The position numbers and the translations under genes were made by a program. Shown here piece by piece: positions 5,378-59,931 of a stretch of 64,000 bases of DNA. Position 1 is the stretch's first letter, and every line of letters begins with the position of its first letter. The notes under the pieces are model-generated. The model saw only the letters and a program-made list of their open reading frames with translations. It did no database searches and was not told where the DNA came from. Origin of the DNA: a virus (taxonomy: Duplodnaviria > Heunggongvirae > Uroviricota > Caudoviricetes); the IMG/VR virus record IMGVR_UViG_3300001688_000696, one strand, 5' to 3'.

Positions 5378-7318
5378 ATGGGTGCTAATCAAGAACTTTC
5401 TTTATTGACCGGTGACACATCATTTTATGTTGCCGAAAAGATTGCAGCGGCGACATTGGATGACTTTGATGATGTCATTGTCGATGTTTTAACTGAATAT
5501 GCCCGTATTTACCATGCGGTTTCCGCATTTTTGTATCTGATAGCTGACGAAGACAGTTTTGAAATTGTCGCTCATTACGAGTGGCACCAGACTGGAAGAA
5601 TGGCAATTACGCAGCGAGTGGGGGACAACCTTCTGCGATATAAACCCAGTTTGCAGATATTTAAAACGCACGGATTTATCATGCAAGAAATCGACGACAC
5701 CTTGCGAAGCTATGTCCGGCAAGGTTCAAAAATAGGCTATCTGGACGATATTTCCAAAGTTATTTCGTCTTCATTGCATATAGATGGGAAACTGATAGGC
5801 TTCTTCGGTTTTAATATCGGCCGGGATGCGCCTGAAAACTCTGATGACGCCTTTATCAATTCGCTGCTGTTTACCCGCTCCGCGTTACAGGGGCTTATCC
5901 GCCGCAAATATTTGCTTCAGGCATCCAATGGAGACATCAACACCACTTTGAAGTCGCTGGTCGACAGTTTGTCCAGTGGCGCAATGGTCATCGGCGGTGA
6001 TAAAACAATTTTGCTGGCAAATAAAAAGATATTCGGCCTTCTCGGATATTCTTCCGATGAGTTGGTTGGAAAGCCAATTACTTCTGTTTTCCCGTTGATT
6101 TTTCGGCAGGATGTTTCGCACAGTTACCGGAGAATCGAAACTGCCAACCATGTCAAAGGGCAGTATTACAACCTGACCATCAAAACAAAAGACGGGAAGG
6201 AAAAGCACACCATCCTGCACTGGGAACCCATCTATTATGATGAAGCGAACTTTTACGGCCTGATTTGCTCGATTACAGATATTACTGAATGCGTTGAAAG
6301 AGACCTTCTGCTTTCCCATTTTCATGAACCGCTGCCGCAGGAAAACATTGCATCGGAATCCCTCATCCGCAATCTGGAAATTTATACACGTCTGCTGCTA
6401 AACCTGCAATCCAGCGAAGCTATACCGCAAGCCTTCGATGTATTGACACAACATTTCCAGGCATGGTTGTCTAATTATTCCGGGATGGTCGTGCTGGGGA
6501 ACGAAGCCCACCAGATTGAATGTTCCGAGTACGTGTGGAATGGCTTCAATTCGGAAGATTTTTGGACAGCCATGCAGGTAAAAATGGGAAAATGCTGTAT
6601 TGATGGCATTACGCAGGATGATTTTGCAAGGCTTTCTTCAGATACCCGGTTCGTGTGTCCTATCGAAGGGCAGGATACCATCATCGGCGCAATTGTCGTG
6701 GAGTCCAACAAACCGATAACCGACCTTTTGAAGCGTAATTTGAAACTCATCGCGTCACAGTTCGGGTGGATTGCTTTGGACATCCGGTTGAAAGAAAATC
6801 TGCGGCACAAGTCCAGTTATGACCCTTTGTCTGGACTGCTCAATCGCTGGGACATGCTGGATGAAGTGCAGGCAATGGAATATGAGCGCAACAACACAAA
6901 TATTTGCGCTATTATGGTGGACATTGATAATTTCAAACAGTTCAATGACCGATATGGGCATCTTGCGGGCGATAAGGTCATCCAGGCAGTTGGTGAGATT
7001 ATCAGCGGAAACATCCGTAAAGACTCCGACCGTGCATATCGTTATGGCGGCGAAGAATTTCTGGTGATTATGCCGGGTGCATCCAAATCTGTAGCCATGC
7101 AGCGGGCGGAAAATCTAAGGCAGAAAATCGAAAACCTGAAGTTTTTCCCCCGCGAAAATTCGCCTGTCTCGATTACCATTTCGGTTGGTATGTGTTCTTA
7201 CTGCTCGCACATGGGCGAGTTTACTATCAAGCGGATGCTGGTGCTGGCGGATACGGCTTTGTATCACGCCAAACGCACCGGAAAAAACAAGGTGGTCGCC
7301 CTGGACTACAACGAATGA
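5378..7318 (+). CDS. GAF/PAS sensor diguanylate cyclase (GGDEF domain, RYGGEEF)
   Basis: C-terminal GGDEF domain with RYGGEEF and DxLTGLxNR-like motifs. PAS-like segment (GAMVIGGDKTILLANKKIFGLLGYSSDELVGKPI). The track start 5363 is TTG; ATG 5378 is preferred. Confidence 0.9.
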   Translation: MGANQELSLLTGDTSFYVAEKIAAATLDDFDDVIVDVLTEYARIYHAVSAFLYLIADEDSFEIVAHYEWHQTGRMAITQRVGDNLLRYKPSLQIFKTHGFIMQEIDDTLRSYVRQGSKIGYLDDISKVISSSLHIDGKLIGFFGFNIGRDAPENSDDAFINSLLFTRSALQGLIRRKYLLQASNGDINTTLKSLVDSLSSGAMVIGGDKTILLANKKIFGLLGYSSDELVGKPITSVFPLIFRQDVSHSYRRIETANHVKGQYYNLTIKTKDGKEKHTILHWEPIYYDEANFYGLICSITDITECVERDLLLSHFHEPLPQENIASESLIRNLEIYTRLLLNLQSSEAIPQAFDVLTQHFQAWLSNYSGMVVLGNEAHQIECSEYVWNGFNSEDFWTAMQVKMGKCCIDGITQDDFARLSSDTRFVCPIEGQDTIIGAIVVESNKPITDLLKRNLKLIASQFGWIALDIRLKENLRHKSSYDPLSGLLNRWDMLDEVQAMEYERNNTNICAIMVDIDNFKQFNDRYGHLAGDKVIQAVGEIISGNIRKDSDRAYRYGGEEFLVIMPGASKSVAMQRAENLRQKIENLKFFPRENSPVSITISVGMCSYCSHMGEFTIKRMLVLADTALYHAKRTGKNKVVALDYNE

Positions 7319-14733: not shown

Positions 14734-15597
14734 ATGATGACGATGGACATTATTATTTGTGGCGATGTGTTAGATGAACTCAAGAAAATCCCAGATAGTT
14801 CAATCGACCTGATTGTTTGCAGCCCGCCGTACAACAAAGGCGGGGCAGCGCAGGGATATTTGATTGACAACGTTCTTTATTCCCACTTCCGGGACAATCT
14901 TCCTGAAGGAATCTACCAACAGTGGCAGGTGGATGTTTTGAACGAAGCCTACCGGACGGTTAAGCCGGGCGGCTCGCTGTTCTATAATCACAAAATTCGC
15001 TGGAACGATGGGGAGATTATCCATCCTTATTCATGGCTGTGCCGCACGGTCTGGAAAGTCAAGCAGGAAATCATCTGGGACAGGAAACTCGCGGCGAATA
15101 TTCGTGGCTGGCGCTTCTGGCAGACAGATGAACGCATTTACTGGCTGTACAAGCCGTTCAAGGGCAAACACGGAAATATTGGGGTGGAGTTGAAATCCAG
15201 ACATGCCTCTTTGCGTTCTATCTGGCAGATTACGCCGGAGAAAAAGAACCGCAACTCGCACCCGGCACCGTTTCCGCTGGCGCTGGCAGCCCGGATAATC
15301 TATTCGATTTTTGACGAAAAAAAGGGGAAGCACGTTTTGGATATGTTCTGCGGTTCGGGGACGACTCTACTGGCAGCGAAACTGTTAGGGCACCACTACA
15401 TTGGCATCGACAACTCCCCAGAATATGTAAAAATGGCACGGAGGCGGCTCGAACAGCCGCCCGAACACGATATAGAACGCTTCCAGCAGGAAATCGCCCT
15501 GCATAAGACCAACACCAGCTATGATGAATTCAGAAGCGCAAAGAAGTCCACGGGGCGTTATAAATCGAAGTACCGGCAGCGCCGCCAATCTTCCTGA
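14734..15597 (+). CDS. DNA methyltransferase, beta-class N6A/N4C (N-terminal SPPY motif IV, C-terminal FCGSGTT motif I)
   Basis: IVCSPPYN near the N-terminus and DMFCGSGTTLLAAKLLGHHYIGID near the C-terminus (PF01555-like order). ATG 14743 is an alternative start with better RBS spacing. Confidence 0.9.
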   Translation: MMTMDIIICGDVLDELKKIPDSSIDLIVCSPPYNKGGAAQGYLIDNVLYSHFRDNLPEGIYQQWQVDVLNEAYRTVKPGGSLFYNHKIRWNDGEIIHPYSWLCRTVWKVKQEIIWDRKLAANIRGWRFWQTDERIYWLYKPFKGKHGNIGVELKSRHASLRSIWQITPEKKNRNSHPAPFPLALAARIIYSIFDEKKGKHVLDMFCGSGTTLLAAKLLGHHYIGIDNSPEYVKMARRRLEQPPEHDIERFQQEIALHKTNTSYDEFRSAKKSTGRYKSKYRQRRQSS

Positions 15598-25985: not shown

Positions 25986-26869
25986 CATCGAAACCTGTTG
26001 AAAAAATCCTTGTAGGTGGCGATGCCCGCACGGTGCAGACAGTAAACAAATTTTGTCTCTTGTTGCGGGTTGTCACGATTGCTAGTAGACAGGAAATAGA
26101 GACAGTACCGGCAATTCAAAGCCAATCCCCATTTGATATGTTTTAGGCAGGTCGTGTTATTTTCCTGCAAGGGGCAGCCCATTACAACCCAATCGTTCAG
26201 CGAATCATTGAAGTTGACTGCCCTCTGGTCAGCCATTGATGCCATCGTTACCCAGATTTGTTCTGGCATCGGATTGTTCAACCAGTTCATCATGCGCACC
26301 GGATTGGTGAGGATTTTGGCAAGTTCCTGACGGTCTGGAAAATGTCTAAGACGATGTAAATCGACCTCAATCGCCGGCCAACCGTTTTGCTCAATGATGC
26401 GAAGTTTTTCCCGCCCAACGCGGTGAGTGACGTAGATTTCAAGCAGCAGTGGTTCGCCAGCGGAAAAGATAACGATGTCCGGGACAATCCTACCCAGTCT
26501 GGTTTCCAGCGCCACTTCGTCAATTTTGACTTCGATTTTTTCGTCTTTACGAAAGGTGCGATATACCCGGCGAAAGTAAACGCTGCGACCAGAACGGGTG
26601 AAAAACGATAAAAATTCAATCCCGTATCCCGGAATAAAAATGGTTTTTTGCTGGCTGAGGATTTCTTTCGTCAGAAGGTGCAGTGTGGTTTCGCCAGCCC
26701 ATTCGCATTCCGGCGAATTGAGATGGGCGAAGTGATGGATTTTGATGCTCCCCTTACGGGCGACCAGCGGGGCGTTGCAGGTGGGGCAGATGCACTGACA
26801 GGCAGCTCCGCTTTCGACTTCAGAGATATGAACCAGCTTGCCGTTTTTTAGGCCATAGGGAATTTTCAT
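25967..26869 (-). CDS. CoiA-like competence protein family nuclease
   Basis: N-terminal CICPTCNAPLVARKGSIKIHHFAHL, matching the CoiA signature recalled from memory. The 3' end overlaps the tRNA-Glu 3' end by ~19 nt on the opposite strand. Confidence 0.6.
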   Translation of the reverse strand: MKIPYGLKNGKLVHISEVESGAACQCICPTCNAPLVARKGSIKIHHFAHLNSPECEWAGETTLHLLTKEILSQQKTIFIPGYGIEFLSFFTRSGRSVYFRRVYRTFRKDEKIEVKIDEVALETRLGRIVPDIVIFSAGEPLLLEIYVTHRVGREKLRIIEQNGWPAIEVDLHRLRHFPDRQELAKILTNPVRMMNWLNNPMPEQIWVTMASMADQRAVNFNDSLNDWVVMGCPLQENNTTCLKHIKWGLALNCRYCLYFLSTSNRDNPQQETKFVYCLHRAGIATYKDFFNRFRCLPKRI

Positions 26870-40806: not shown

Positions 40807-41556
40807 TTCTTCACCTTCCTTTTCTTCTGGATGCTCGGGAATTCCAAACGGATAGTTGATTTTCCGGGCTTCAAACTCTACCGAGTGCTTTCCAACTAAT
40901 TCATCTATCCATTTAATTTTTTCGTTGTACCAGCGAATGTAATCGGTTTTTCGCTGGTAACGAGGCGCTTCAAACGGGATGAAGCGGTGTCTTCGCCAGT
41001 TGAACAACTCATACAGCCATGGTGGAATCCTATAACGAGCGTAGTAAGAAGTGTCTCCCCCCCTGTACTTGTTGTACAGCTCCACCAGTGCTTGCCGTTT
41101 GGCTTTGTATGCCTGTTCCAGCCGCTCGACTTCCGCCTGCTGTTTGGCTTCCTTCGCCTTTTTCTTCATCTCTGCCAGGCGTTTCTTCATTTTTTCTTCC
41201 GCCTGCTTGAGATTTTCATAAAGAGCAGGGTTGATGCCCTGGAAGTGGTCAATGCAGGTGGAACCGACCTGGTTGGTTGCGCTATCTCTCGGCCGCTTGA
41301 TATAAAAAACATAGCGAATAGAGTGTCCGCAGGCGCATTTCTGTGTTGAATCTTTCCCCGCGTCCACGCATTCGCCAGTATATTCCCACTCAGACGGGTC
41401 TCCAAGCGCCGCAATCAGGTTGCCGATGTAATGCGCTTTGTTCGCCATCCTTTCCAACTTGCGCTCGGTTTTGGAAACAACAGTGTTGTCGGCAACCGTC
41501 CCGCCCTCGATTTCCGTTTCCTTTTTGCAAGTTTCAGTTTTGTCTCGACAGTTCAT
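40804..41556 (-). CDS. hypothetical K/E-rich coiled-coil protein starting MNCRDKT
   Basis: ATG at 41556 with RBS caggagcg. The track start 41616 is over-extended. Confidence 0.6.
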   Translation of the reverse strand: MNCRDKTETCKKETEIEGGTVADNTVVSKTERKLERMANKAHYIGNLIAALGDPSEWEYTGECVDAGKDSTQKCACGHSIRYVFYIKRPRDSATNQVGSTCIDHFQGINPALYENLKQAEEKMKKRLAEMKKKAKEAKQQAEVERLEQAYKAKRQALVELYNKYRGGDTSYYARYRIPPWLYELFNWRRHRFIPFEAPRYQRKTDYIRWYNEKIKWIDELVGKHSVEFEARKINYPFGIPEHPEEKEGEE

Positions 41557-42129: not shown

Positions 42130-42858
42130 CTACCAATCGTCTCCCTCGCCGTAGTAGCCGTAATCTTCATCTGTTCCCCATCCGATGCTGCGCAGCCCGC
42201 TTTCGTGGTCGCCGTCCATGTAGTCATCGTAGCGCTCGTCCGAGTAGCGTTCCAGCTCGCTGAAGTAGTTCGCATATTCATCAATCACTTCAGCAATATT
42301 GACCGGAATTTCACGATAATCCATGACCTTCGTGCCAAAAATGGCATCATCAATCTCGACGTAATTCATCTCCTGATTGTCTGGGTCAGCGTGCCAGTCA
42401 ATGCTGCTGATGCGATAAAAGTTATCTTCCATTTGCAACACGTAATCATAAGATTCTGTGTGTTTATCCACCGGCATCTTATACAGGGAAAAGTCGTATC
42501 CATTCGACCACAAATTCAAGGACAGATATTCATTTGAGTCAAAGGTCTTCACGCGGTCAGGATTAAGGTAATCAACCATGTGGGCAATTTGCGCCCGCAG
42601 CTTATTGCAAAAATCCAAATCGTCCAGCGGCAGGCTTTCGGCAAAATCTTCGCCAAACTTGTCTGCAAAATATTCTCGCAGGTCGTAGACGGTCACAATA
42701 TCGTTGAGTCCAATGTTGATAGCCTTCGCACGGGCGATTACCAAATCCGCAACCTCGGCCAGAGATTTGCCCGGATTTTGTGCCCCTTGAATCGGAACGT
42801 TTCCGTTTTTGTCCGAAATTTCATTCGGATGCTTTGATTTGTCACTGCATTCCATCAT
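42130..42858 (-). CDS. hypothetical highly acidic protein (243 aa; DEDYGYYGEGDDW tail)
   Basis: ATG 42858 with RBS aggag. Confidence 0.6.
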   Translation of the reverse strand: MMECSDKSKHPNEISDKNGNVPIQGAQNPGKSLAEVADLVIARAKAINIGLNDIVTVYDLREYFADKFGEDFAESLPLDDLDFCNKLRAQIAHMVDYLNPDRVKTFDSNEYLSLNLWSNGYDFSLYKMPVDKHTESYDYVLQMEDNFYRISSIDWHADPDNQEMNYVEIDDAIFGTKVMDYREIPVNIAEVIDEYANYFSELERYSDERYDDYMDGDHESGLRSIGWGTDEDYGYYGEGDDW

Positions 42859-46206: not shown

Positions 46207-46397
46207 CCAATGCGCTCCTTTTTCAAAACACTTTATTACTATATAGTAGGACGAAAAAGGGGGGGGATTTTACCGTTTAGTCCAAAATTAATCTCCCATT
46301 AAATGAAAATGAAACAAACCAGTTGAATTCGTCTAATAATCGTCATTAAAACGCATATGTTTTTTTGTCAGACATTTTTAGTAGAGAAAGGAATACC

Positions 46398-48089
46398 ATG
46401 AGGGATATTCTTTGGAAGCAAGCTGGAATACTGATTCTCCTACTGATTGCCTTATTTTTACTTTTCGACAATCAGCCCTCTCAAGTCGTCTATGCCGGTA
46501 GCGAAGCCTGCGGGTCGGGGCAGACCTGTTATTCTAGCTTCAGTTATTCGGATGTAACGTCATGTACGGCTGTTTATCGTTGTGCTGGTTGCAATCCTCT
46601 ATACCAGTGCAATAATGCTGGTACGACTACCAAAACCGCTTCGTGTAATACATCTAGCGGACACTGTGAAACATCCTATACCCGCTTTTACTGCGATGGG
46701 TACGGTTCACAAACGGGAAACTGCCCACGACTTACCACCACTGACAGCCGCGGTTGCTGCGGTTCTGGTGGCAGCGGCGGTGGCGGAGGAGGCGACAGTG
46801 GTGGCGGCAGTGGATGTACGATGGTCGTCCCCACCGGGCTAAAGGTTATCGGTACTCAAATTTCGTGGAATTCAATTCCTGGGGTAACGCAATATGATGT
46901 TCGCATCGATGATATGACTGCGAATGGCTGGAATGGTGATTGTGGTGCGCCATTATCCGGCGACTATTGTGTTAACCGATATGCCAGCACAACAATGTCA
47001 TGGAATTTTGTATCGGGGCATACATATCACGTGTGGGTACATGCCCGCATGTGTGGCGGCGTTACCGATGCGGTTCACCTAACCGGAGTGATGATTCTTC
47101 CGAAAGTAACCGGTATCAAAGTTACCTGTGCGGCTGATGCAAAAAAGGCGACTGTTACCTGGAATGCCATTAGTGGCGCAAGCCAATATCAGCTCCGGGT
47201 GAATGTTGACCCTGTATCACAGTGGGCGGGCTGTCCGGCTGCGGGCTGCGACCCAAACGATTATTCGAATTATTACACAACGAATTCGGCTACAATTTCA
47301 ACAACGCCCAATTCACCATTCCAGGTCAATGTCCAGGCTATAAAAAGCGGGGAAACGTATCCATACCCAGCGCCGTGGTCGGACTGGATTAGCGCCAAGT
47401 GTGTTCCTGCCACACCGACAAGGACGCCGACACGCACACCAACGCGGACTCCAACTCGCACACCAACGCGGACTCCGACTCGCACGCCGACACGCACGCC
47501 GACTCGTACTCAGCCGCCTCCGGCAACCAACACGCCGACCCGGACACCGACTTCGGCGGCAACCGCCACACCTTATCCAAATGAGATAGTTGGGTCTATC
47601 TCTGCTGGTTTGCTGCCCGCTTACCAATGGAACGCCAGAGATGCCGACCCGGTGCTGAACCTGCCCACTTTTAACTTGGAGGTTCGCAACTACTACTTGA
47701 CTGACAAGATTTACATCAAGTTGGATGCGCCAGTTGGCAATTTCTACACCTATGTCTTAACTGGTGATGATGTTACGGCTTTAGGGCTTCCTTATGATGC
47801 TGCGACACATACGCTGACATTGAACGCCACACCAGAACTCATGGATGCGATTGAAAGACAGGTCGGCGCAATGGATGGTCTTACACCGCTAAGTCGCTGC
47901 CCGGTTAACCGGAATCGGTTGTGTTGGGGAACAACAATTGGTTCAAAACGCGACGATACTTTCACCAAGCCATCAGATGCGATTGGTGAATGGACAATTT
48001 CGGTTTGGGCTGAACATATCAGCGGTGTCCAGTCAAACACAGTAACGGGCACGTATAGAGTTACCACAACGCTCATCGGAGAGCATTAG
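46398..48089 (+). CDS. secreted Cys-rich protein with Gly-rich and (PTRT)n linkers, FN3-like domains and shared C-terminal CWGTT domain
   Basis: ATG 46398 with RBS aaagga. Signal-like TM. Linkers GSGGSGGGGGGDSGGGSG and TPTRTPTRTPTRT. C-terminal PVNRNRLCWGTTIG...KPSDAIGEWTISV. Confidence 0.75.
   Translation: MRDILWKQAGILILLLIALFLLFDNQPSQVVYAGSEACGSGQTCYSSFSYSDVTSCTAVYRCAGCNPLYQCNNAGTTTKTASCNTSSGHCETSYTRFYCDGYGSQTGNCPRLTTTDSRGCCGSGGSGGGGGGDSGGGSGCTMVVPTGLKVIGTQISWNSIPGVTQYDVRIDDMTANGWNGDCGAPLSGDYCVNRYASTTMSWNFVSGHTYHVWVHARMCGGVTDAVHLTGVMILPKVTGIKVTCAADAKKATVTWNAISGASQYQLRVNVDPVSQWAGCPAAGCDPNDYSNYYTTNSATISTTPNSPFQVNVQAIKSGETYPYPAPWSDWISAKCVPATPTRTPTRTPTRTPTRTPTRTPTRTPTRTPTRTQPPPATNTPTRTPTSAATATPYPNEIVGSISAGLLPAYQWNARDADPVLNLPTFNLEVRNYYLTDKIYIKLDAPVGNFYTYVLTGDDVTALGLPYDAATHTLTLNATPELMDAIERQVGAMDGLTPLSRCPVNRNRLCWGTTIGSKRDDTFTKPSDAIGEWTISVWAEHISGVQSNTVTGTYRVTTTLIGEH
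47414..47510 (+). repeat. 12-nt tandem repeat (~8 units) encoding (PTRT)n
   Basis: ccgacacgcaca / ccaacgcggact units, read directly. Confidence 0.8.
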
Positions 48090-48098
48090 CCCTCAAAA

Positions 48099-48175
48099 AA
48101 GAAACCGCCCATCATCAAAAGGTGGGCGGTTTCTTTTTCTTATTAAAGAAAAAATGCCCTTGCGGGCATTTTTCG
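48099..48175 (+). terminator. two tandem intrinsic terminators
   Basis: gaaaccgccca...tgggcggtttc + T, then atgccc ttgc gggcat + T. Confidence 0.75.
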
Positions 48176-48177
48176 AG

Positions 48178-48490
48178 ATGTGCGGACTAGGCGCGTCCCC
48201 GCTCCATCTCACGCCGGAATAGCCACGGCTTTCAGGACTCTGCCTCTCGTGGACTTGCCTTCACCGACGTACCGAGCACACCATGGTTCCACCGCACTGT
48301 CCGATAAGGCAGACCTTACGGTCTTCGAAACCTTATCGTAAGGCAAACATCTCCGCGGGGCATCTAACCGGATTTAGTTTGCCATGCCTCCGAGTTCGCG
48401 TAACCGCGCCCTACCTCGGAGTGTCCTCGACCCCACACCCGGCAAGTATCGTAGTTATCGGTGTCCTACGCATTCCGACTTCCGGACTTA
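48178..48490. ncRNA. GC-rich highly structured non-coding region (candidate structured RNA, family unknown)
   Basis: Multiple nested helices, e.g. ccgataagg[c agacc ttac ggtct tcgaaa]ccttatcg, and cctccgag[ttcgcg taac cgcg]...ctcggag. No credible ORF. Strand undetermined. Confidence 0.3.
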
Positions 48491-48792
48491 TCTGTTTGTA
48501 AGGTTCTGAATTGATATATTTATTATACATGCTTTTTTGCGAATTGTCAAGAGCGAAAATGCATTTAATGCCAATTCATTCGAGATTTTTTCTCGAATTG
48601 CGAATGAGATTTCCGCCCGGATTGCCGGTGAAATCGTTTTTTTTAGTGGAATGTGGAAAATGCACTCGGCGGAGCAAAGAAAGCGCCAGGGAAATGGGGA
48701 GCGTCCGTTCATGGTAGCGCCAGCCCATATCACGCGCTGTTGCAAAGGACTAACAGCGCCAAGTTTCGTGCGTGGTTTGGTGACAGCAAAAT

Positions 48793-48825
48793 AAAAAGAC
48801 CAGCGGTTTGCTGGTCTTTTTTTTC
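48793..48825. terminator. bidirectional intrinsic terminator
   Basis: agaccagc ggtt gctggtct + T8. Confidence 0.8.
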
Positions 48826-48838
48826 AAAAGTTGCTGCA

Positions 48839-49912
48839 TCAATCCGCATCGAAATTTAGCAACTGTTCGATTTTGTCCGCCACTTCCGGGCTGATGACTT
48901 TAGCGATTTGTTCCTTCAAACTTAAATCATCCCATTCGCACATAAGCTCGGCGCGCCTTTCTTCAGCGCCTTCGCCATAAATAGTGGAAAAGTTTGCCCG
49001 ATGGATGGAGTAGATAATTTTTTCGAGTTCCAAAACATTGATATGCGGCTTTGTTGGGATATTAGAAACTCCATAGTCAACCAGGTCATATGGTGTGATA
49101 TTCCCAAAGCTGAAGTGCTGCCGCTCGCCGTTCTCGACAAAAAAATTAACCCGCTCATTCATACTGTTGATGAAATAGGAATAGCCGTTTTTTTCTGTCA
49201 AAATCCGGTCGAACTCATCGCTGACCTCTTTGACCTTCTGGATATATCTATCAACCTTGCTTCCATAGCATTTCTTTGCAGCGAAAGCCATCCGCCCGTT
49301 ATGTCCGAAATCTCCGCCAATAGAATGCAAATCAATGCCAAGCTGGGTCATGGCGATTTTGTCGCCGTAATTCAGGGCGTACTCACGGATTTCGTCACCG
49401 GATGCGTTCCGGGGCAGGCGGGGTATCCACCAGCGTTTTGTGTTTTTGCCAATCTTTTTCCATCCTTGACCTTTGATGAAATAATCCGGGTCGCTCGCTT
49501 CAACCGGGATGTACTGCTGCGTACTCTTATCGTAAACAGCCAGAATTTCCTTTTCTGTGACCGTTGCCATGCCATTCGGCCAAAAGTTTCCCCTGACACC
49601 ATCGGTATCTTTTTCCGGGTCATATTTCCGCCGTTCCACGCCGCGCAACTGGCGGAACTGGTTGACCATTTTCAATTCCAGCAAAGCAAATGGCTTTTTG
49701 GCAAAATCATCCTTTTCCAACTTGCCATATTCAGAACGAACCATCTCGATAATGGCTTCAAGCGTTTGTGGGTCTTTGATATTTGCGGTTGCCGCAGAGA
49801 GATTGTCAACGCTGAAATTCAGTGCCTTATCCAGCTCCGCCCACATCGCTATATCTTCATCAGAACGGTGGGTTTCAAAATTCTTTTTGAATTCCTGATA
49901 AGCTTTTTGCAA
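48839..49912 (-). CDS. hypothetical protein; N-terminal part separated in another frame (50063..49966) by a homopolymer frame change
   Basis: Main ORF has only a TTG start. Upstream ORF MKCRKQVKELQKTFASSGTMVAKAAALKGEKVR* has RBS aagga. They meet at ctgaagggggaaaaagta (G5A5; plus strand T5C5 at 49973-49982). Deleting one G gives ...AALKGKKYDNEALKFFAGYL... in frame. Same orientation as, and directly downstream of, the methyltransferase at 50116. Confidence 0.6.
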   Translation of the reverse strand: MQKAYQEFKKNFETHRSDEDIAMWAELDKALNFSVDNLSAATANIKDPQTLEAIIEMVRSEYGKLEKDDFAKKPFALLELKMVNQFRQLRGVERRKYDPEKDTDGVRGNFWPNGMATVTEKEILAVYDKSTQQYIPVEASDPDYFIKGQGWKKIGKNTKRWWIPRLPRNASGDEIREYALNYGDKIAMTQLGIDLHSIGGDFGHNGRMAFAAKKCYGSKVDRYIQKVKEVSDEFDRILTEKNGYSYFINSMNERVNFFVENGERQHFSFGNITPYDLVDYGVSNIPTKPHINVLELEKIIYSIHRANFSTIYGEGAEERRAELMCEWDDLSLKEQIAKVISPEVADKIEQLLNFDAD

Positions 49913-50115
49913 AGCTGCACTATAAACGGGCAGATAGCCAGCGAAAAATTTCAGCGCCTCGTTATCGTACTTTTTCCCCCTTCAGCGCGGCAGCCTTAGC
50001 AACCATAGTGCCGGAACTGGCGAAGGTTTTCTGCAACTCTTTAACTTGCTTACGACATTTCATGATTTTTTATCCTTTGATATTTGGATGATAGCAAGCA
50101 AAAAGCCGCCTATTT

Positions 50116-50874
50116 TCAGGCGGCCTTTTCCAGTCTATTTTTTGCCAGCTCAAACGAAGTCGGGTCAATTTCAACCCCGATAAAATTTCTACCAGTCTGT
50201 CTGGCAACCAGACCGGTTGTACCCGAACCCATAAACGGGTCAAGGACGGTCACGCCGACCCAACTGTACAGCTTGATGCAGCGGTAGGGGAGTTCTTCCG
50301 GGAAGGGAGCGTTGTGCCCCAACACATTTTTTCCTTTTGAATTGATTTTGACCTTGCCGGGGAACGACCAGACCGATTTGGTGAATTTTGCAAATTCTTC
50401 TTTGGTCAGGTCGCTGACGCCTTTCGTCATCAACTTTCGCTGCATCTTATAAAACACGAAAACAAACTCATGGTCAGGTCGCACCGATGGGCAGGACGGA
50501 GATTTAAACGACCCCCATGCAGTGCTACCTACATGGTTCGGCTTGTACCAGATGTGAGTTGCCCGCCACATCCAGCCAAGATGAATGATTTTGGGAAACA
50601 GCTCCCAGATATTCCAGCGGTTTTCGCCGTTACTGGTGCTTTCAGGCAGGTTCAGGCACAGCCGGCCACCCGGCTTTGTCACCCGGTAAATCTCAGCCAA
50701 ACGCTCCAGCAGCCAACAGAAATAAGTGGTCGCCGAACGGTTGTCGTCAAAAGTTTTGTAATCTATCCCTACGTTGTAGGGTGGACTGGTCACAGTCAGG
50801 TCAACCGTGTCGGCTGGCAGCCCCTTCAGAATATCCAGGCAATCTCCCAAATAAAGTTGGCATGTCGTCGTCAT
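50116..50874 (-). CDS. DNA methyltransferase, beta-class N6A/N4C
   Basis: N-terminal LTVTSPPYNVGIDY. C-terminal DPFMGSGTTGLVARQTGRNFIGVEID. Confidence 0.9.
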   Translation of the reverse strand: MTTTCQLYLGDCLDILKGLPADTVDLTVTSPPYNVGIDYKTFDDNRSATTYFCWLLERLAEIYRVTKPGGRLCLNLPESTSNGENRWNIWELFPKIIHLGWMWRATHIWYKPNHVGSTAWGSFKSPSCPSVRPDHEFVFVFYKMQRKLMTKGVSDLTKEEFAKFTKSVWSFPGKVKINSKGKNVLGHNAPFPEELPYRCIKLYSWVGVTVLDPFMGSGTTGLVARQTGRNFIGVEIDPTSFELAKNRLEKAA

Positions 50875-53777: not shown

Positions 53778-54977
53778 ATGGAGTGCAAAAACCGGATAAA
53801 ACATGCAGTTGAGCGAGTAAAAGAAAGCGGCGGAGTGAATGCCGAGCAAAGTAAGGCTCTGGACGAACTGTTTTCCCCGTTTTCCAGTTTTACAGACGTG
53901 CGCAGGTACATTCTCGCAAAGGAAAACCTGCGCCGCAGCAACAATTCATGGCGCGTGTTTCAAGCCCTGCTGTTTACCGCCCAAATAGATGCAGAGATAA
54001 AAGAACAGTACCAAAAAGTTATCGAGGAGATGATTGGCGCGCTCAAAGATTATCTGGACGGGGCGAACAGTGATTACGAATATGCGACCGTTCTCAAAGA
54101 CCTGCTTTCCAGCCTGCACAACAGCCAGAAATTTTTTGCCAATGGGCAGGAAGTTTATCTTTCCCGTTCCGAATTTGACCAGCTCACTGAAATGCTTCCG
54201 AAGCTGGAAAAGAAAGTCAAGGAAGATTACGGAAACAGCCTGTGTGTGACGCGGTGCAAAAAGTGTGGCTGGCAAATTGGCATCCCCAAAAAATACGGAA
54301 TTCATGGAATGAACGATGTGGATGCCTGTCCCAACTGCACGCCTGGACTTCCGGTAAGCACCCGCTGCGAGCAGGAGAGCGGAGACAACTATCTGGTTGG
54401 TAAGTTCGGTGTTTTCTATCTGGACAGGAAGCCCTACCCGTACCTCCATGAGGTCAAAAAAATTGTCCCAATACCGAAAAAAGTTAACTTTACACCCCGT
54501 GACCACCAAAAAGGGCGGATGTATAGTGCAGAGGCCAGATGTGAAATTAAGCAGGATGGCATCCAGTTTCAAAGTTTGGAAGAAATGCAGGCGTATACAG
54601 ATGAACTGGTCTCATCCGATGAATTCCGCAAGCAGTTCGGGGGCGTTGGGCATTTATCGGTGATAAGCAATGAAAACCGAAGCGAATCCTATGCCATGGT
54701 GGATAGCGGCATCATTGCCATTGCCAATTCCATGAAAAATGAATACGTACTTCTGCACGAAATTGCCCACCACATCCTGTGGAACCAGCCGACTTACATC
54801 AAAAATAACCAGCAGCAGCACGGAGCGCTGTACGCCTATATTTTGCTGAAACTCGTGCGCATGAAAATGGGAGACCGTGTGGCAGACAAGCTGGCGAAGG
54901 CTTTTGACGAAGGAAAAGTCAAGTGGCGGGAAGGCAAGCCATTGTTTGATGAAATGCAGCAGGTTATCGTTTATTGA
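53778..54977 (+). CDS. SprT/Wss1-like HExxH protein with Cys4 Zn-ribbon; paralog of 12740..13975
   Basis: LLHEIAHHIL...HGALYAY. Ribbon CKKCGW...CPNCTPG. C-terminal KAFDEGKVKWREGK. RBS gaggt. Confidence 0.7.
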   Translation: MECKNRIKHAVERVKESGGVNAEQSKALDELFSPFSSFTDVRRYILAKENLRRSNNSWRVFQALLFTAQIDAEIKEQYQKVIEEMIGALKDYLDGANSDYEYATVLKDLLSSLHNSQKFFANGQEVYLSRSEFDQLTEMLPKLEKKVKEDYGNSLCVTRCKKCGWQIGIPKKYGIHGMNDVDACPNCTPGLPVSTRCEQESGDNYLVGKFGVFYLDRKPYPYLHEVKKIVPIPKKVNFTPRDHQKGRMYSAEARCEIKQDGIQFQSLEEMQAYTDELVSSDEFRKQFGGVGHLSVISNENRSESYAMVDSGIIAIANSMKNEYVLLHEIAHHILWNQPTYIKNNQQQHGALYAYILLKLVRMKMGDRVADKLAKAFDEGKVKWREGKPLFDEMQQVIVY

Positions 54978-55860: not shown

Positions 55861-56640
55861 CTACTTTGTGCTTTTAATTCTGTTTTGGGCAATTTCACAA
55901 TAATCCGGGCAGCGTTCAATTCCGAGATAATTGCGCCCGAGCTGTCTAGCAGCCAGGGCGGTCGTCCCCGCCCCCAAAAATGGGTCAAGTACGAGGTCGC
56001 CCACGTAGGAATAATACTCAACCACCTTTTGCGCCAGTTCCAGTGGGAAGGGGGCAGGGTGCCCGACTTTACAGGGGTTTTCCGGGCGGATTTGCCATAC
56101 GTTTGTACGCTCATAGCCGTCTGCAACCAACGAAGCCTGAATAATCTCTGGACTGTGGTCACGAATAGCCAAATCCAGCAGCCCATACCCCCTTTTGAAA
56201 ACCAGCAGGTATTCTGTCACCTGAAACGGCTTGTAGGCAACCGGGCGGCGGTGATGAGCGAACTTGATAGCCCGATTGGATGCCCCATCCGGTTTTACCC
56301 AGATGATGTCATCCACGAATTTGAATCCTGTCTGTGTGGCAATCGGCAGGTAATCGAAAGGGATGGCAAGCCGGGTTGATTCGGTTGAACGCTTTTCGCG
56401 GGGGACAATTACGCAGGACAGGTTGATGACAAAAATGCGATTATCCTTCAAAACCCGGAAAACTTGCTTAGTAACCTGCGACAAAAAATCCAGATACTCC
56501 TGATAGGTGGAATAGCTGGCATACTGCTGGCGGGCGTTGAAGTACGGCGGGCTGGTAAAGCACAAATCAACACAGTTATCGGGCATGGACTTCATCACTT
56601 CCACACAATCGCCCTGAATGATTTGATTGGTCAAATCCAT
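55861..56640 (-). CDS. DNA methyltransferase, beta-class N6A/N4C
   Basis: ATG 56640 with RBS aggagg. N-terminal DLCFTSPPYF. C-terminal DPFLGAGTTALAARQLGRNYLGIE. Confidence 0.9.
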   Translation of the reverse strand: MDLTNQIIQGDCVEVMKSMPDNCVDLCFTSPPYFNARQQYASYSTYQEYLDFLSQVTKQVFRVLKDNRIFVINLSCVIVPREKRSTESTRLAIPFDYLPIATQTGFKFVDDIIWVKPDGASNRAIKFAHHRRPVAYKPFQVTEYLLVFKRGYGLLDLAIRDHSPEIIQASLVADGYERTNVWQIRPENPCKVGHPAPFPLELAQKVVEYYSYVGDLVLDPFLGAGTTALAARQLGRNYLGIERCPDYCEIAQNRIKSTK

Positions 56641-56749
56641 CTGCAATCGAGCCTCCTGCAAGGAGGACGCGCAGAAGGGTGGATAAACAAAAAGTTCCAC
56701 CGTTTAGGTGGAGCTTTAAATAGGGCTGGCAGGTCGCCGGTTTGCTTGG

Positions 56750-57540: not shown

Positions 57541-58266
57541 TTACATTTCAACCCCCACCCGAAACGCCTTGCCTTTCGTAAAAATCGCCAAAAAACCGAA
57601 AACGCAAATGGCGGAGAACAGGGCGGCGGCTGCGACAAGTGTTTTCCAGCGGATAAATTCACTGGTAACGGTGATAACGATGGGCGTTTCGTTGTTTCCT
57701 TTCCAGACCAGCCCGCCATTTTCATCCACAACACCGTTGGTGCTGATGATTTTTCCGGGCAGTTTGAGCCGGAACTGCGTGTCCATCCACGAAATTCCGT
57801 TGGTATTTTCACCGGCAGCCGGTTTTTCCTGTGCATCCATGCCTACAGAAGCAACCATCTCCGGCATATCCAGGACGGCATCAAACGTTATCCAGTCGGC
57901 AAAAATGTCGCGTTTCAAATGGATAGAAACGCTTTGAAACGCCCCGGTGTTCATCAGCAAATCCTTCAGTTCTTCCAAATTGTCAAATTTAAGCGCCCCT
58001 TCTGCCCAATCGTAGTCGCCGCTGCGATACCGGGAAAACGGCGTGTGCTGGTTTCCGCTTTGCTTTTGAAGGAACTGCTGGAAGCTATCGAAGGGGTCTT
58101 CTTCGCTGGTCATTTCTATCCACACATAGGCTTTGGTTGCAATTCCAACCGCGAGATTGACCACACCAGAGAAGTCTTCGCGAATGGTTACCTCGATTTG
58201 TGTCTGAGCGCATGAGGAAAGAAAAAACGCTGCAAGCAGCAGGGCGATGATGGTGTGATATTTCAT
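57541..58266 (-). CDS. lipoprotein (LSSC) with C-terminal TM anchor, hypothetical
   Basis: Signal + lipobox. RBS gagg. Confidence 0.7.
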   Translation of the reverse strand: MKYHTIIALLLAAFFLSSCAQTQIEVTIREDFSGVVNLAVGIATKAYVWIEMTSEEDPFDSFQQFLQKQSGNQHTPFSRYRSGDYDWAEGALKFDNLEELKDLLMNTGAFQSVSIHLKRDIFADWITFDAVLDMPEMVASVGMDAQEKPAAGENTNGISWMDTQFRLKLPGKIISTNGVVDENGGLVWKGNNETPIVITVTSEFIRWKTLVAAAALFSAICVFGFLAIFTKGKAFRVGVEM

Positions 58267-59004: not shown

Positions 59005-59094
59005 TGCAGGTTATCCACACAAATGTGGATAACCTTGCCGCCCAAAAATTGAGCAACGGCGGTGTCACGCGTCTTTCTCCATATCAACCAAAAA

Positions 59095-59931
59095 ATGATG
59101 ATGGAGAGAACCGTGGATACTTGCCTGTATTGTGATGATTGTCTTAATGTTCTCAAAAATTTTTCCCACCAGCCGACTTTGACCTTTTTCGACCCACCGT
59201 TTAATGTCGGAAAAAAATATTACATGCACAATGACAACATGCCCGATGAAGAATATTGGGCATGGATGAGCGAAATCCTTTCGCTTATTCGCAAGCACAC
59301 GCTGCCGGGCGGAAGCATTTATTTCATGCAGCGGGAGAAGAACGCTCACAAGGTGATTGAAACCCTGCTAAAGACCGGGTGGACGTTCAAAAACATGATT
59401 ATCTGGAAGAAGATGACTTCAGCCACCCCGATGACGACCGGATTTGGAAAAAGCTATCAGGTCATCGTTTATGCGACCAAAGGGGAAAAACCGAGGGTTT
59501 TCAACCGTCTGCGCATCGACCCGGAGTTGAAGCCCCACCAAAAGGTTGCTCGCAAAAACGGAATTTTTGTCACGGATGTCTGGGACGATATTCGTGAAAT
59601 GACTTCCGGGTATTTCGCCGGGGCTGAACAGCTCAAAAATGAAAATGGGAAAATGGCGCATCACCAGCAGTCGCCAATCGCCCTTCTGGTTCGCATCATC
59701 CTGTCATCGTCCATGCCTGGAGACGTGGTGTTCGACCCGTTTTCCGGCACCGGCACAACCGTAGTCGCAGCCCGCCAGCTCCGCCGCATTGGAGTCGGGG
59801 TTGAGTGCGACCCGCATTACATGGAACTCATTCAAAAGCGTCTGGCTGACCAGCGGGACTGCGACCGGGTTGACCAGTACCGGGCTGATTACAAACACAC
59901 CCCGAATTTGGAAAAAATTTGGGGGGACTAA
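59095..59931 (+). CDS. DNA methyltransferase, beta-class N6A/N4C
   Basis: N-terminal LTFFDPPFNVGKKY. C-terminal DPFSGTGTTVVAARQLRRIGVGVE. The track start 59062 is GTG. Confidence 0.9.
   Translation: MMMERTVDTCLYCDDCLNVLKNFSHQPTLTFFDPPFNVGKKYYMHNDNMPDEEYWAWMSEILSLIRKHTLPGGSIYFMQREKNAHKVIETLLKTGWTFKNMIIWKKMTSATPMTTGFGKSYQVIVYATKGEKPRVFNRLRIDPELKPHQKVARKNGIFVTDVWDDIREMTSGYFAGAEQLKNENGKMAHHQQSPIALLVRIILSSSMPGDVVFDPFSGTGTTVVAARQLRRIGVGVECDPHYMELIQKRLADQRDCDRVDQYRADYKHTPNLEKIWGD

Follow-up and report, generated by a model that had tools for sequence, protein, structure and literature searches.

A single extra G splits a gene beside a DNA methyltransferase, probably as an ordinary null allele of a rare accessory gene

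Introduction

In the 64-kb stretch of DNA analysed here (the window), a gene for a DNA methyltransferase is followed on the same strand by a 33-codon ORF and then by an ORF of ~357 codons. This layout raises the question of whether the two ORFs are remnants of one gene and, if so, whether that gene was broken by an ordinary mutation, is switched or recoded at a homopolymer, or appears broken only through an assembly error. It also raises the question of whether the product of this gene is the restriction partner of the methyltransferase, as a preliminary description of the locus had suggested.

Layout of the split gene

The 33-codon ORF and the 357-codon ORF that lacks an ATG start both belong to one gene of 407 codons, here called orf407, and the annotation should give a single frameshifted gene in place of two ORFs. 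The features of the locus are as follows.

50116..50874, minus strand: beta-class DNA methyltransferase, intact, 252 aa (PF01555, PADLOC MTase_II)
50100..50129, minus strand: terminator-like hairpin AAAAGGCCGCC-UGAAAAUA-GGCGGCUUUUU, over and just past the methyltransferase stop codon
50077..50073, minus strand: AAGGA ribosome-binding site, 9 nt 5' of the ATG, read from the sequence
48839..50063, minus strand: orf407, whole disrupted gene, 1225 nt in the window
49962..50063, minus strand: 5' fragment of orf407, ATG, 33 codons (MKCRKQVKELQKTFASSGTMVAKAAALKGEKVR), then TAA
49980..49971, minus strand: G5A5 tract (T5C5 on the plus strand), with the G-run at 49976..49980
48839..49981, minus strand: 3' fragment of orf407, +1 frame, 380 codons, stop at 48841..48839
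48793..48821, minus strand: intrinsic terminator of orf407, 12-bp stem, then a T-run

The 5' fragment begins at an ATG (50063..50061) and ends at a TAA (49964..49962), with codons 1-28 being native and the final five out of frame. The good ribosome-binding site that the preliminary description had assigned to this ORF is indeed present, but the end coordinate given there (49966) is off by 1-4 nt. The +1 frame opens at 49981, directly past a TGA (49984..49982), and includes the conserved domain at the C-terminus (residues ~170-407 in intact-protein numbering). Its first ATG occurs only at the equivalent of codon 73, and no Shine-Dalgarno sequence is found near its start; the program-listed ORF begins with a TTG at 49912 (357 aa), which agrees with the earlier observation of a ~357-aa ORF that has no ATG start. 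The string quoted in that description, ctgaagggggaaaaagta, is found in the window, and the two frames overlap at ctgaaGGGGGAAAAAgta, which contains the G5A5 tract. Such T5C5/G5A5 tracts occur only twice in the 64-kb window, the second being at 7142. Removal of one G yields a single continuous protein of 407 aa; the idea that the two ORFs are halves of one gene, separated by a 1-nt length change in the G-run, was therefore correct, but the fused length of ~390 aa was not. We also considered overlapping ORF pairs at 18.6-19.4 kb and 23.9-25.0 kb as further split genes, and rejected them, as the overlaps look like spurious ORFs.

Intact alleles of orf407 in related contigs

The fused protein matched (i) P0001 (407 aa) with 99% identity over 100% of the length (E 1.5e-270) and (ii) P0002 (411 aa) with 42% identity over the full length (E 4e-103), and the P0002 alignment is gapless over the junction (ALKGKKYDNEALKFF versus PLNGNKFDKAFVSFF). 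These full-length matches show that the split is not a chance juxtaposition of two ORFs. The 90%-identity cluster of P0001 comprises seven distinct 407-aa alleles, all of them intact, which come from assemblies of JGI, ENA, and Logan, as well as the fragments of the window itself, namely P0003 (33 aa) and P0012 (357 aa), both of which derive from a 399,701-bp JGI contig. Intact copies of the gene reside in contigs L001, L012, L013, L019-L021, L031, and L032, and intact 407-aa alleles with 99% identity are present in many independent assemblies (JGI, ENA with MEGAHIT and SPAdes, and Logan).

The intact alleles are 1224 nt in length (407 codons and the stop), one less than the 1225 nt of the window. 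In L001, a 4.6-kb contig with 99.4% DNA identity, the tract reads G4A5 in place of the G5A5 of the window. Indeed, G4A5 was found in 21 of 21 distinct related metagenome contigs covering the site, and G5 only in the window, whose G-run at 49976..49980 is one G longer than in all related contigs. The 26 fetched loci behind this tally fall on 21 distinct contigs, which differ in sample and assembler; their DNA identity to the window is 99.1-99.9%, with one at 98.9%. Because an intact orthologue exists, from which the window copy differs by an indel that creates a premature stop, the latter has the form of a frameshift pseudogene or null allele.

The orf407 protein family

The fused protein gave no significant match in Pfam, PHROGs, PADLOC, NCBIfam, or PDB sequence profiles, nor in a tblastn search against phage genomes. 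PADLOC returned no REase for it and only a marginal Csx1/Csm6 match (E 0.0016), of which no stretch passed alone. Pfam and PHROG matches are rare throughout the window, the exceptions including GGDEF/PAS, SPFH, CAP-domain, GNAT, and thioredoxin-like proteins, and the methyltransferases. No relatives of orf407 were detected in GTDB representative genomes or in IMG/VR scans. An exhaustive phmmer search of 1.84 billion representatives retrieved only P0002, P0014 (293 aa, 31% identity), and P0015 (243 aa, 27% identity), besides P0013, which is a 98-aa fragment of orf407 itself (99% identical), and a profile search added P0016 (240 aa). The family consists of five sequence clusters among 5.8 billion proteins.

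The short members of the family match the C-terminal ~230 residues of orf407, which indicates that this part is the conserved core. The protein is predicted to consist of a helical-bundle region at the N-terminus and a conserved alpha/beta domain of ~230 aa at the C-terminus. In the predicted structures (AlphaFold models), we found no nuclease fold, and in the C-terminal domain no recognisable fold or catalytic motif. The residues invariant in the five members, namely Y184, P186, F195, G198, G200, G205, Y232, G233, Q240, S247, G249, G267, D271, P339, S381, and E393, are mostly glycine, proline, or aromatic; the only acidic ones are D271, which resides in a predicted helix, and E393, and none of the invariant residues is a lysine or a histidine. 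A search of orf407 for PD-(D/E)xK, HNH, GIY-YIG, and PLD nuclease folds or motifs found none, and the presence of known nuclease active-site patterns in this protein is thus not supported.

A 399-aa orphan encoded at 53778-54977 (plus strand) starts with MECKNRIKHAVERVKESGG, which resembles the N-termini of the orf407 family (MKCRKQVKELQKTFASSG, MVCQNRIKVIKADLAMSSG), and the pattern M.C..[RQK][IVL]K occurs in the window only at the starts of orf407 and of this gene. The C-terminus of the orphan contains an HEXXH metallohydrolase-like region (TIGR04338, E 6e-9, below cutoff). The two proteins may share an N-terminal module, or the resemblance may be due to chance.

The closest homologue, P0002, belongs to an organism that has other proteins in common with the window, at 50-55% identity. 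An adenylate-kinase fragment from this organism matched GTDB genomes at no more than ~40%, in unrelated phyla. The gene for P0002 lies between one for a HEAT-repeat protein and orphan genes, and within 10 kb on either side of this intact gene, in 17 contigs, there is no adjacent methyltransferase, the only trace being a weak 83-aa match 8 kb upstream. Linkage of orf407 to a methyltransferase was observed only in contigs of the same species (99% identity), and was not conserved across homologues in a comparison that rests on the P0002 loci, the contigs of P0014 and P0015 being too short to judge. The P0002 island (L002-L011) also encodes a NERD protein, RelB/ParE, and, in some contigs, an ISL3 transposase. 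It is flanked by two core genes, and the homologues of these lie side by side in the window, at 40846-41556 and 42352-42789 (40.8-42.9 kb), which makes this region a variable hotspot in this lineage.

The neighbouring methyltransferase

The gene upstream of orf407 had been described as an intact methyltransferase, and our analyses bear this out. Its product matches PF01555 (E 3.6e-46) over profile positions 1-220 of 221, as well as PADLOC MTase_II (E 4.7e-70), and its motif IV (SPPY, residues 30-33) lies ahead of its motif I (FMGSG, residues 214-218), an order that, together with the PF01555 match, defines it as a beta-class N4/N6 methyltransferase. Among the strains, this gene shows five synonymous and three nonsynonymous SNPs. 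The hairpin at 50100..50129 (-21.1 kcal/mol in RNAfold), which has a U-run, separates the methyltransferase from orf407, and orf407 has its own ribosome-binding site; a consensus terminator scan did not list the hairpin because the U-run is part of the stem.

The spacer between the two genes is itself polymorphic. At 50081, an 11-bp indel (GGACTCTAATA, with flanking AATA repeats) produces alleles of 34 and 45 nt, and the window carries the short, 34-nt allele. A promoter considered in the long allele was rejected, as it fits at only 8 of 12 positions by hand and was not called by the promoter scan.

The window encodes four beta-class N4/N6 methyltransferases (14734-15597, 50116-50874, 55861-56700, and 59062-59931), which share 27-32% mutual identity, and of which three contain SPPY and one DPPF. 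Three of the four have orphan genes of ~400 aa beside them; we compared these orphans as possible paralogues, and they proved mutually unrelated. Since a methyltransferase beside a large unknown gene is the rule in this window, such adjacency is no signal of a restriction-modification (R-M) system.

Recurrent inactivation of orf407

Two further frameshift alleles of orf407 were found among the related contigs. The P0006 allele (325 aa) carries a T7-to-T8 frameshift at gene nt ~919 and occurs in three contigs (L027-L029). The P0005 allele (379 aa) carries a 1-bp deletion (ATCACACC to ATCAACC) at nt ~970 and occurs in five contigs (L022-L026), which come from several samples and from MEGAHIT, SPAdes, and JGI assemblies. 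Counting the window, the contigs that span the whole gene comprise eight intact and nine frameshifted copies, counts that are partly non-independent in that some contigs re-assemble the same samples.

All seven SNPs in orf407 are nonsynonymous, with no synonymous ones, whereas the other genes of the 12.7-kb region compared contain 13 synonymous and 21 nonsynonymous SNPs (p = 0.077, on few events). Likewise, orf407 shows frameshift indels and SNPs in a ratio of 3:7, and the other coding sequence in a ratio of 1:34 (Fisher p = 0.03, again on few events), and in both comparisons the retrieval of the contigs via orf407 biases where variation could show. Three frameshift alleles, together with SNPs that are all nonsynonymous, make orf407 look dispensable and decaying in this population. 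The gene looks as though it behaves like neutral DNA in this strain population, where its loss would be neutral or favoured. Against this view, P0002 (42% identity) is full-length and intact in 17 contigs, which places the family under long-term constraint somewhere.

Evaluation of alternative explanations

Homopolymers are a classic site of consensus errors, and one wrong base in the 399,701-bp consensus of the source contig would be indistinguishable from the lesion described here; the organism would then have G4A5 and an intact gene. The occurrence of G5 in the window only, against G4 in 21 other contigs, is what such an artefact in the consensus of one contig would produce, and so is the fact that the orf407 sequences of L019, L020, and L021 equal that of the window apart from the extra G. 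Compared with L019, the window differs by 17 SNPs and one 12-bp indel over 12.6 kb, with the extra G being the only difference within orf407; compared with L020, it differs over 3.4 kb by the extra G and one further SNP, which lies outside orf407. Against an artefact, the G-run is the sole 1-nt indel between the window and L019 across the 12.6 kb. Furthermore, four other homopolymers (at 59090, 57552, 55849, and 52840) differ between the window and L012/L013, and at each of these the independent Logan contig L019 agrees with the window, which argues that the assembly of the window is not error-prone and led us to reject widespread homopolymer error in it. Elsewhere, homopolymer indels between haplotypes fall between genes or at the far 3' end of a gene, as expected of real variants filtered by selection. 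Moreover, the recurrence of the two other orf407 frameshifts across samples and assemblers indicates that real disruption of this gene is common. On balance, we consider the extra G to be probably a real mutation, and an assembly error, the main alternative, to be rather unlikely, at about one chance in four. A switch at this site is much less probable than either. The preliminary description had raised phase variation, in which a G/A homopolymer turns the gene ON and OFF, and one could also envisage programmed recoding, in which +1 ribosomal frameshifting decodes the split gene. The lesion does sit in a homopolymer towards the 5' end of orf407, and on GGG-G a tRNA-Gly in the P site may shift its pairing to the +1 frame, a move that would recover exactly the native sequence. 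However, contingency-locus tracts are typically ~8 or more nt in length, and the tract here has only four or five G followed by five A; G4 is present in 21 of 22 sequences, with no G3 or G6, so that common ON and OFF states are not seen (21 contigs with G4A5, the window with G5A5); and the other two frameshifts occur at different, unrelated positions. As for recoding, the frameshift is conserved in no homologue, all homologues and other alleles being single-frame at the junction, the A-site codon after GGG is GAA, which is neither a stop nor obviously rare, and no stimulator is evident, so that the site does not resemble a prfB-like programmed +1 frameshift. We therefore regard both phase variation and recoding as very improbable. 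Phase-variable homopolymeric R-M genes, which include Type III mod and some Type I/II genes of Neisseria, Haemophilus, Campylobacter, and Helicobacter, resemble orf407 in having a frameshifted G-run close to the 5' end of a methyltransferase-adjacent gene, but the tract of orf407 is much too short (G4/G5) and near-monomorphic in 22 sequences, and its other disruptions lie outside the tract.

A further alternative concerns what the gene encodes, and leaves room for a genuine frameshift. Helicobacter pylori provides well-documented cases of type II R-M systems that have decayed to an active methyltransferase beside a frameshifted res gene, and orf407 could be, or could have been, the REase partner of the methyltransferase at 50116-50874, inactivated in several lineages so as to leave an orphan methyltransferase. 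Such a history would account for the fact that every contig of this species has orf407 next to, and in the same orientation as, a type-II-like methyltransferase, and for the conservation of the methyltransferase (five synonymous and three nonsynonymous SNPs) while its neighbour gathers frameshifts. The island that carries P0002, with its NERD protein, RelB/ParE, and ISL3 transposase, provides a defence-island-like setting, and restriction enzymes are typically orphan-like in sequence. In contrast to a decayed type II system, however, the disrupted gene here is devoid of nuclease signals (no match to PADLOC REase models, Pfam, NCBIfam, or PDB, and invariant residues that lack Lys and His and include only D271 and E393 as acidic ones), its closest homologue is unlinked to a methyltransferase, and a terminator-like hairpin of -21 kcal/mol stands between the two genes; in addition, the four divergent methyltransferases of the window each lie beside different orphan genes. 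The view of orf407 as a restriction enzyme is thus not supported by these sequence comparisons and structural models, the proposal of a restriction partner appears improbable, and no R-M annotation of the methyltransferase at 50116-50874 is warranted on this evidence. We give a slightly smaller chance to the possibility that orf407 and its four relatives form an unrecognised class of toxic or defence effectors, for example a restriction-like enzyme of a new fold with an adjacent methyltransferase of the SPPY type (probably m4C). If this were so, the cost of the effector would drive its repeated independent inactivation, which would explain three frameshift alleles among 99.5%-identical genomes.

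A probable null allele in a rare accessory gene

The explanation that we consider the most plausible, and somewhat probable overall, is an ordinary null allele (G4A5 to G5A5) of a rare accessory gene that is dispensable and on its way to being lost. Under this explanation, a single G would have been inserted into the G4 run at codon 29 of orf407. Ribosomes starting at the ATG at 50063 would then read five wrong codons and stop at the TAA at 49964..49962, and the remaining 380 codons, which have neither a start codon nor a ribosome-binding site, would stay untranslated. Leakage would be confined to a rare +1 slippage of tRNA-Gly on GGG-G that brings back the native ...LKGKKYD... sequence exactly, and the strain would be, in effect, a null mutant for the orf407 protein. 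The methyltransferase is expected to be unaffected by the frameshift, owing to its upstream position and its own terminal hairpin.

The split of orf407 is either a null allele of an ordinary kind or the result of one miscalled base. Like other frameshift null alleles and pseudogenes of bacterial accessory genes, it involves (i) a 1-base indel in a short homopolymer and a stop after 33 codons, as well as (ii) intact alleles in sister strains, several independent inactivations, and an apparent excess of nonsynonymous changes. We see no essential difference from such alleles; orf407 is unusual only as a member of a five-cluster family that has no recognisable fold. As it stands, a lone null allele of a hypothetical gene, or a lone wrong base call in it, is of little consequence. 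Three independent frameshifts among near-identical strains nevertheless flag orf407 as dispensable or costly in these communities, and only this recurrent inactivation and the rarity of the family are noteworthy.

Other features of the window

Downstream of orf407 on the minus strand, a perfect sigma-70 consensus (TTGACA-17-TATAAT, 12 of 12 positions) is found at 48550..48522. It is followed on its 3' side by ~340 nt that are richer in G+C, contain no ORF of more than 39 aa, and end at back-to-back terminator hairpins (48095-48176). The stretch from 48090 to 48550 is 100% conserved in most strain haplotypes, has a folding z-score of only -0.62, and matches no Rfam family; it is a candidate gene for a small RNA or a small protein on the minus strand. 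The spacer of this promoter is 16 or 17 nt, depending on an A5/A6 polymorphism at 48533.

The neighbouring ORF at 46365-48089 (plus strand) encodes a Cys- and Gly-rich protein of 574 aa that has no Pfam match. It contains, at 47411-47506, a tandem repeat of period 12/24 that encodes (PTRT)n, and this repeat region is the most variable stretch between the strain haplotypes.

Two tRNA arrays are present in the window, one at 21502-22062 (Phe-Phe-Ser(GGA)-Ser(GCU)-Ser(UGA)-Ser(CGA)) and one at 25682-25986, which consists of four tRNA-Glu (UUC, CUC, UUC, and UUC).

Finally, in the LppM-like gene at 57541-58266 (minus strand), a G5/G6 polymorphism at 57552, a few codons before the stop, alters the C-terminus of the protein between haplotypes (241 versus 239 aa); outside orf407, it is the only homopolymer indel in coding sequence across the 12.7 kb compared.
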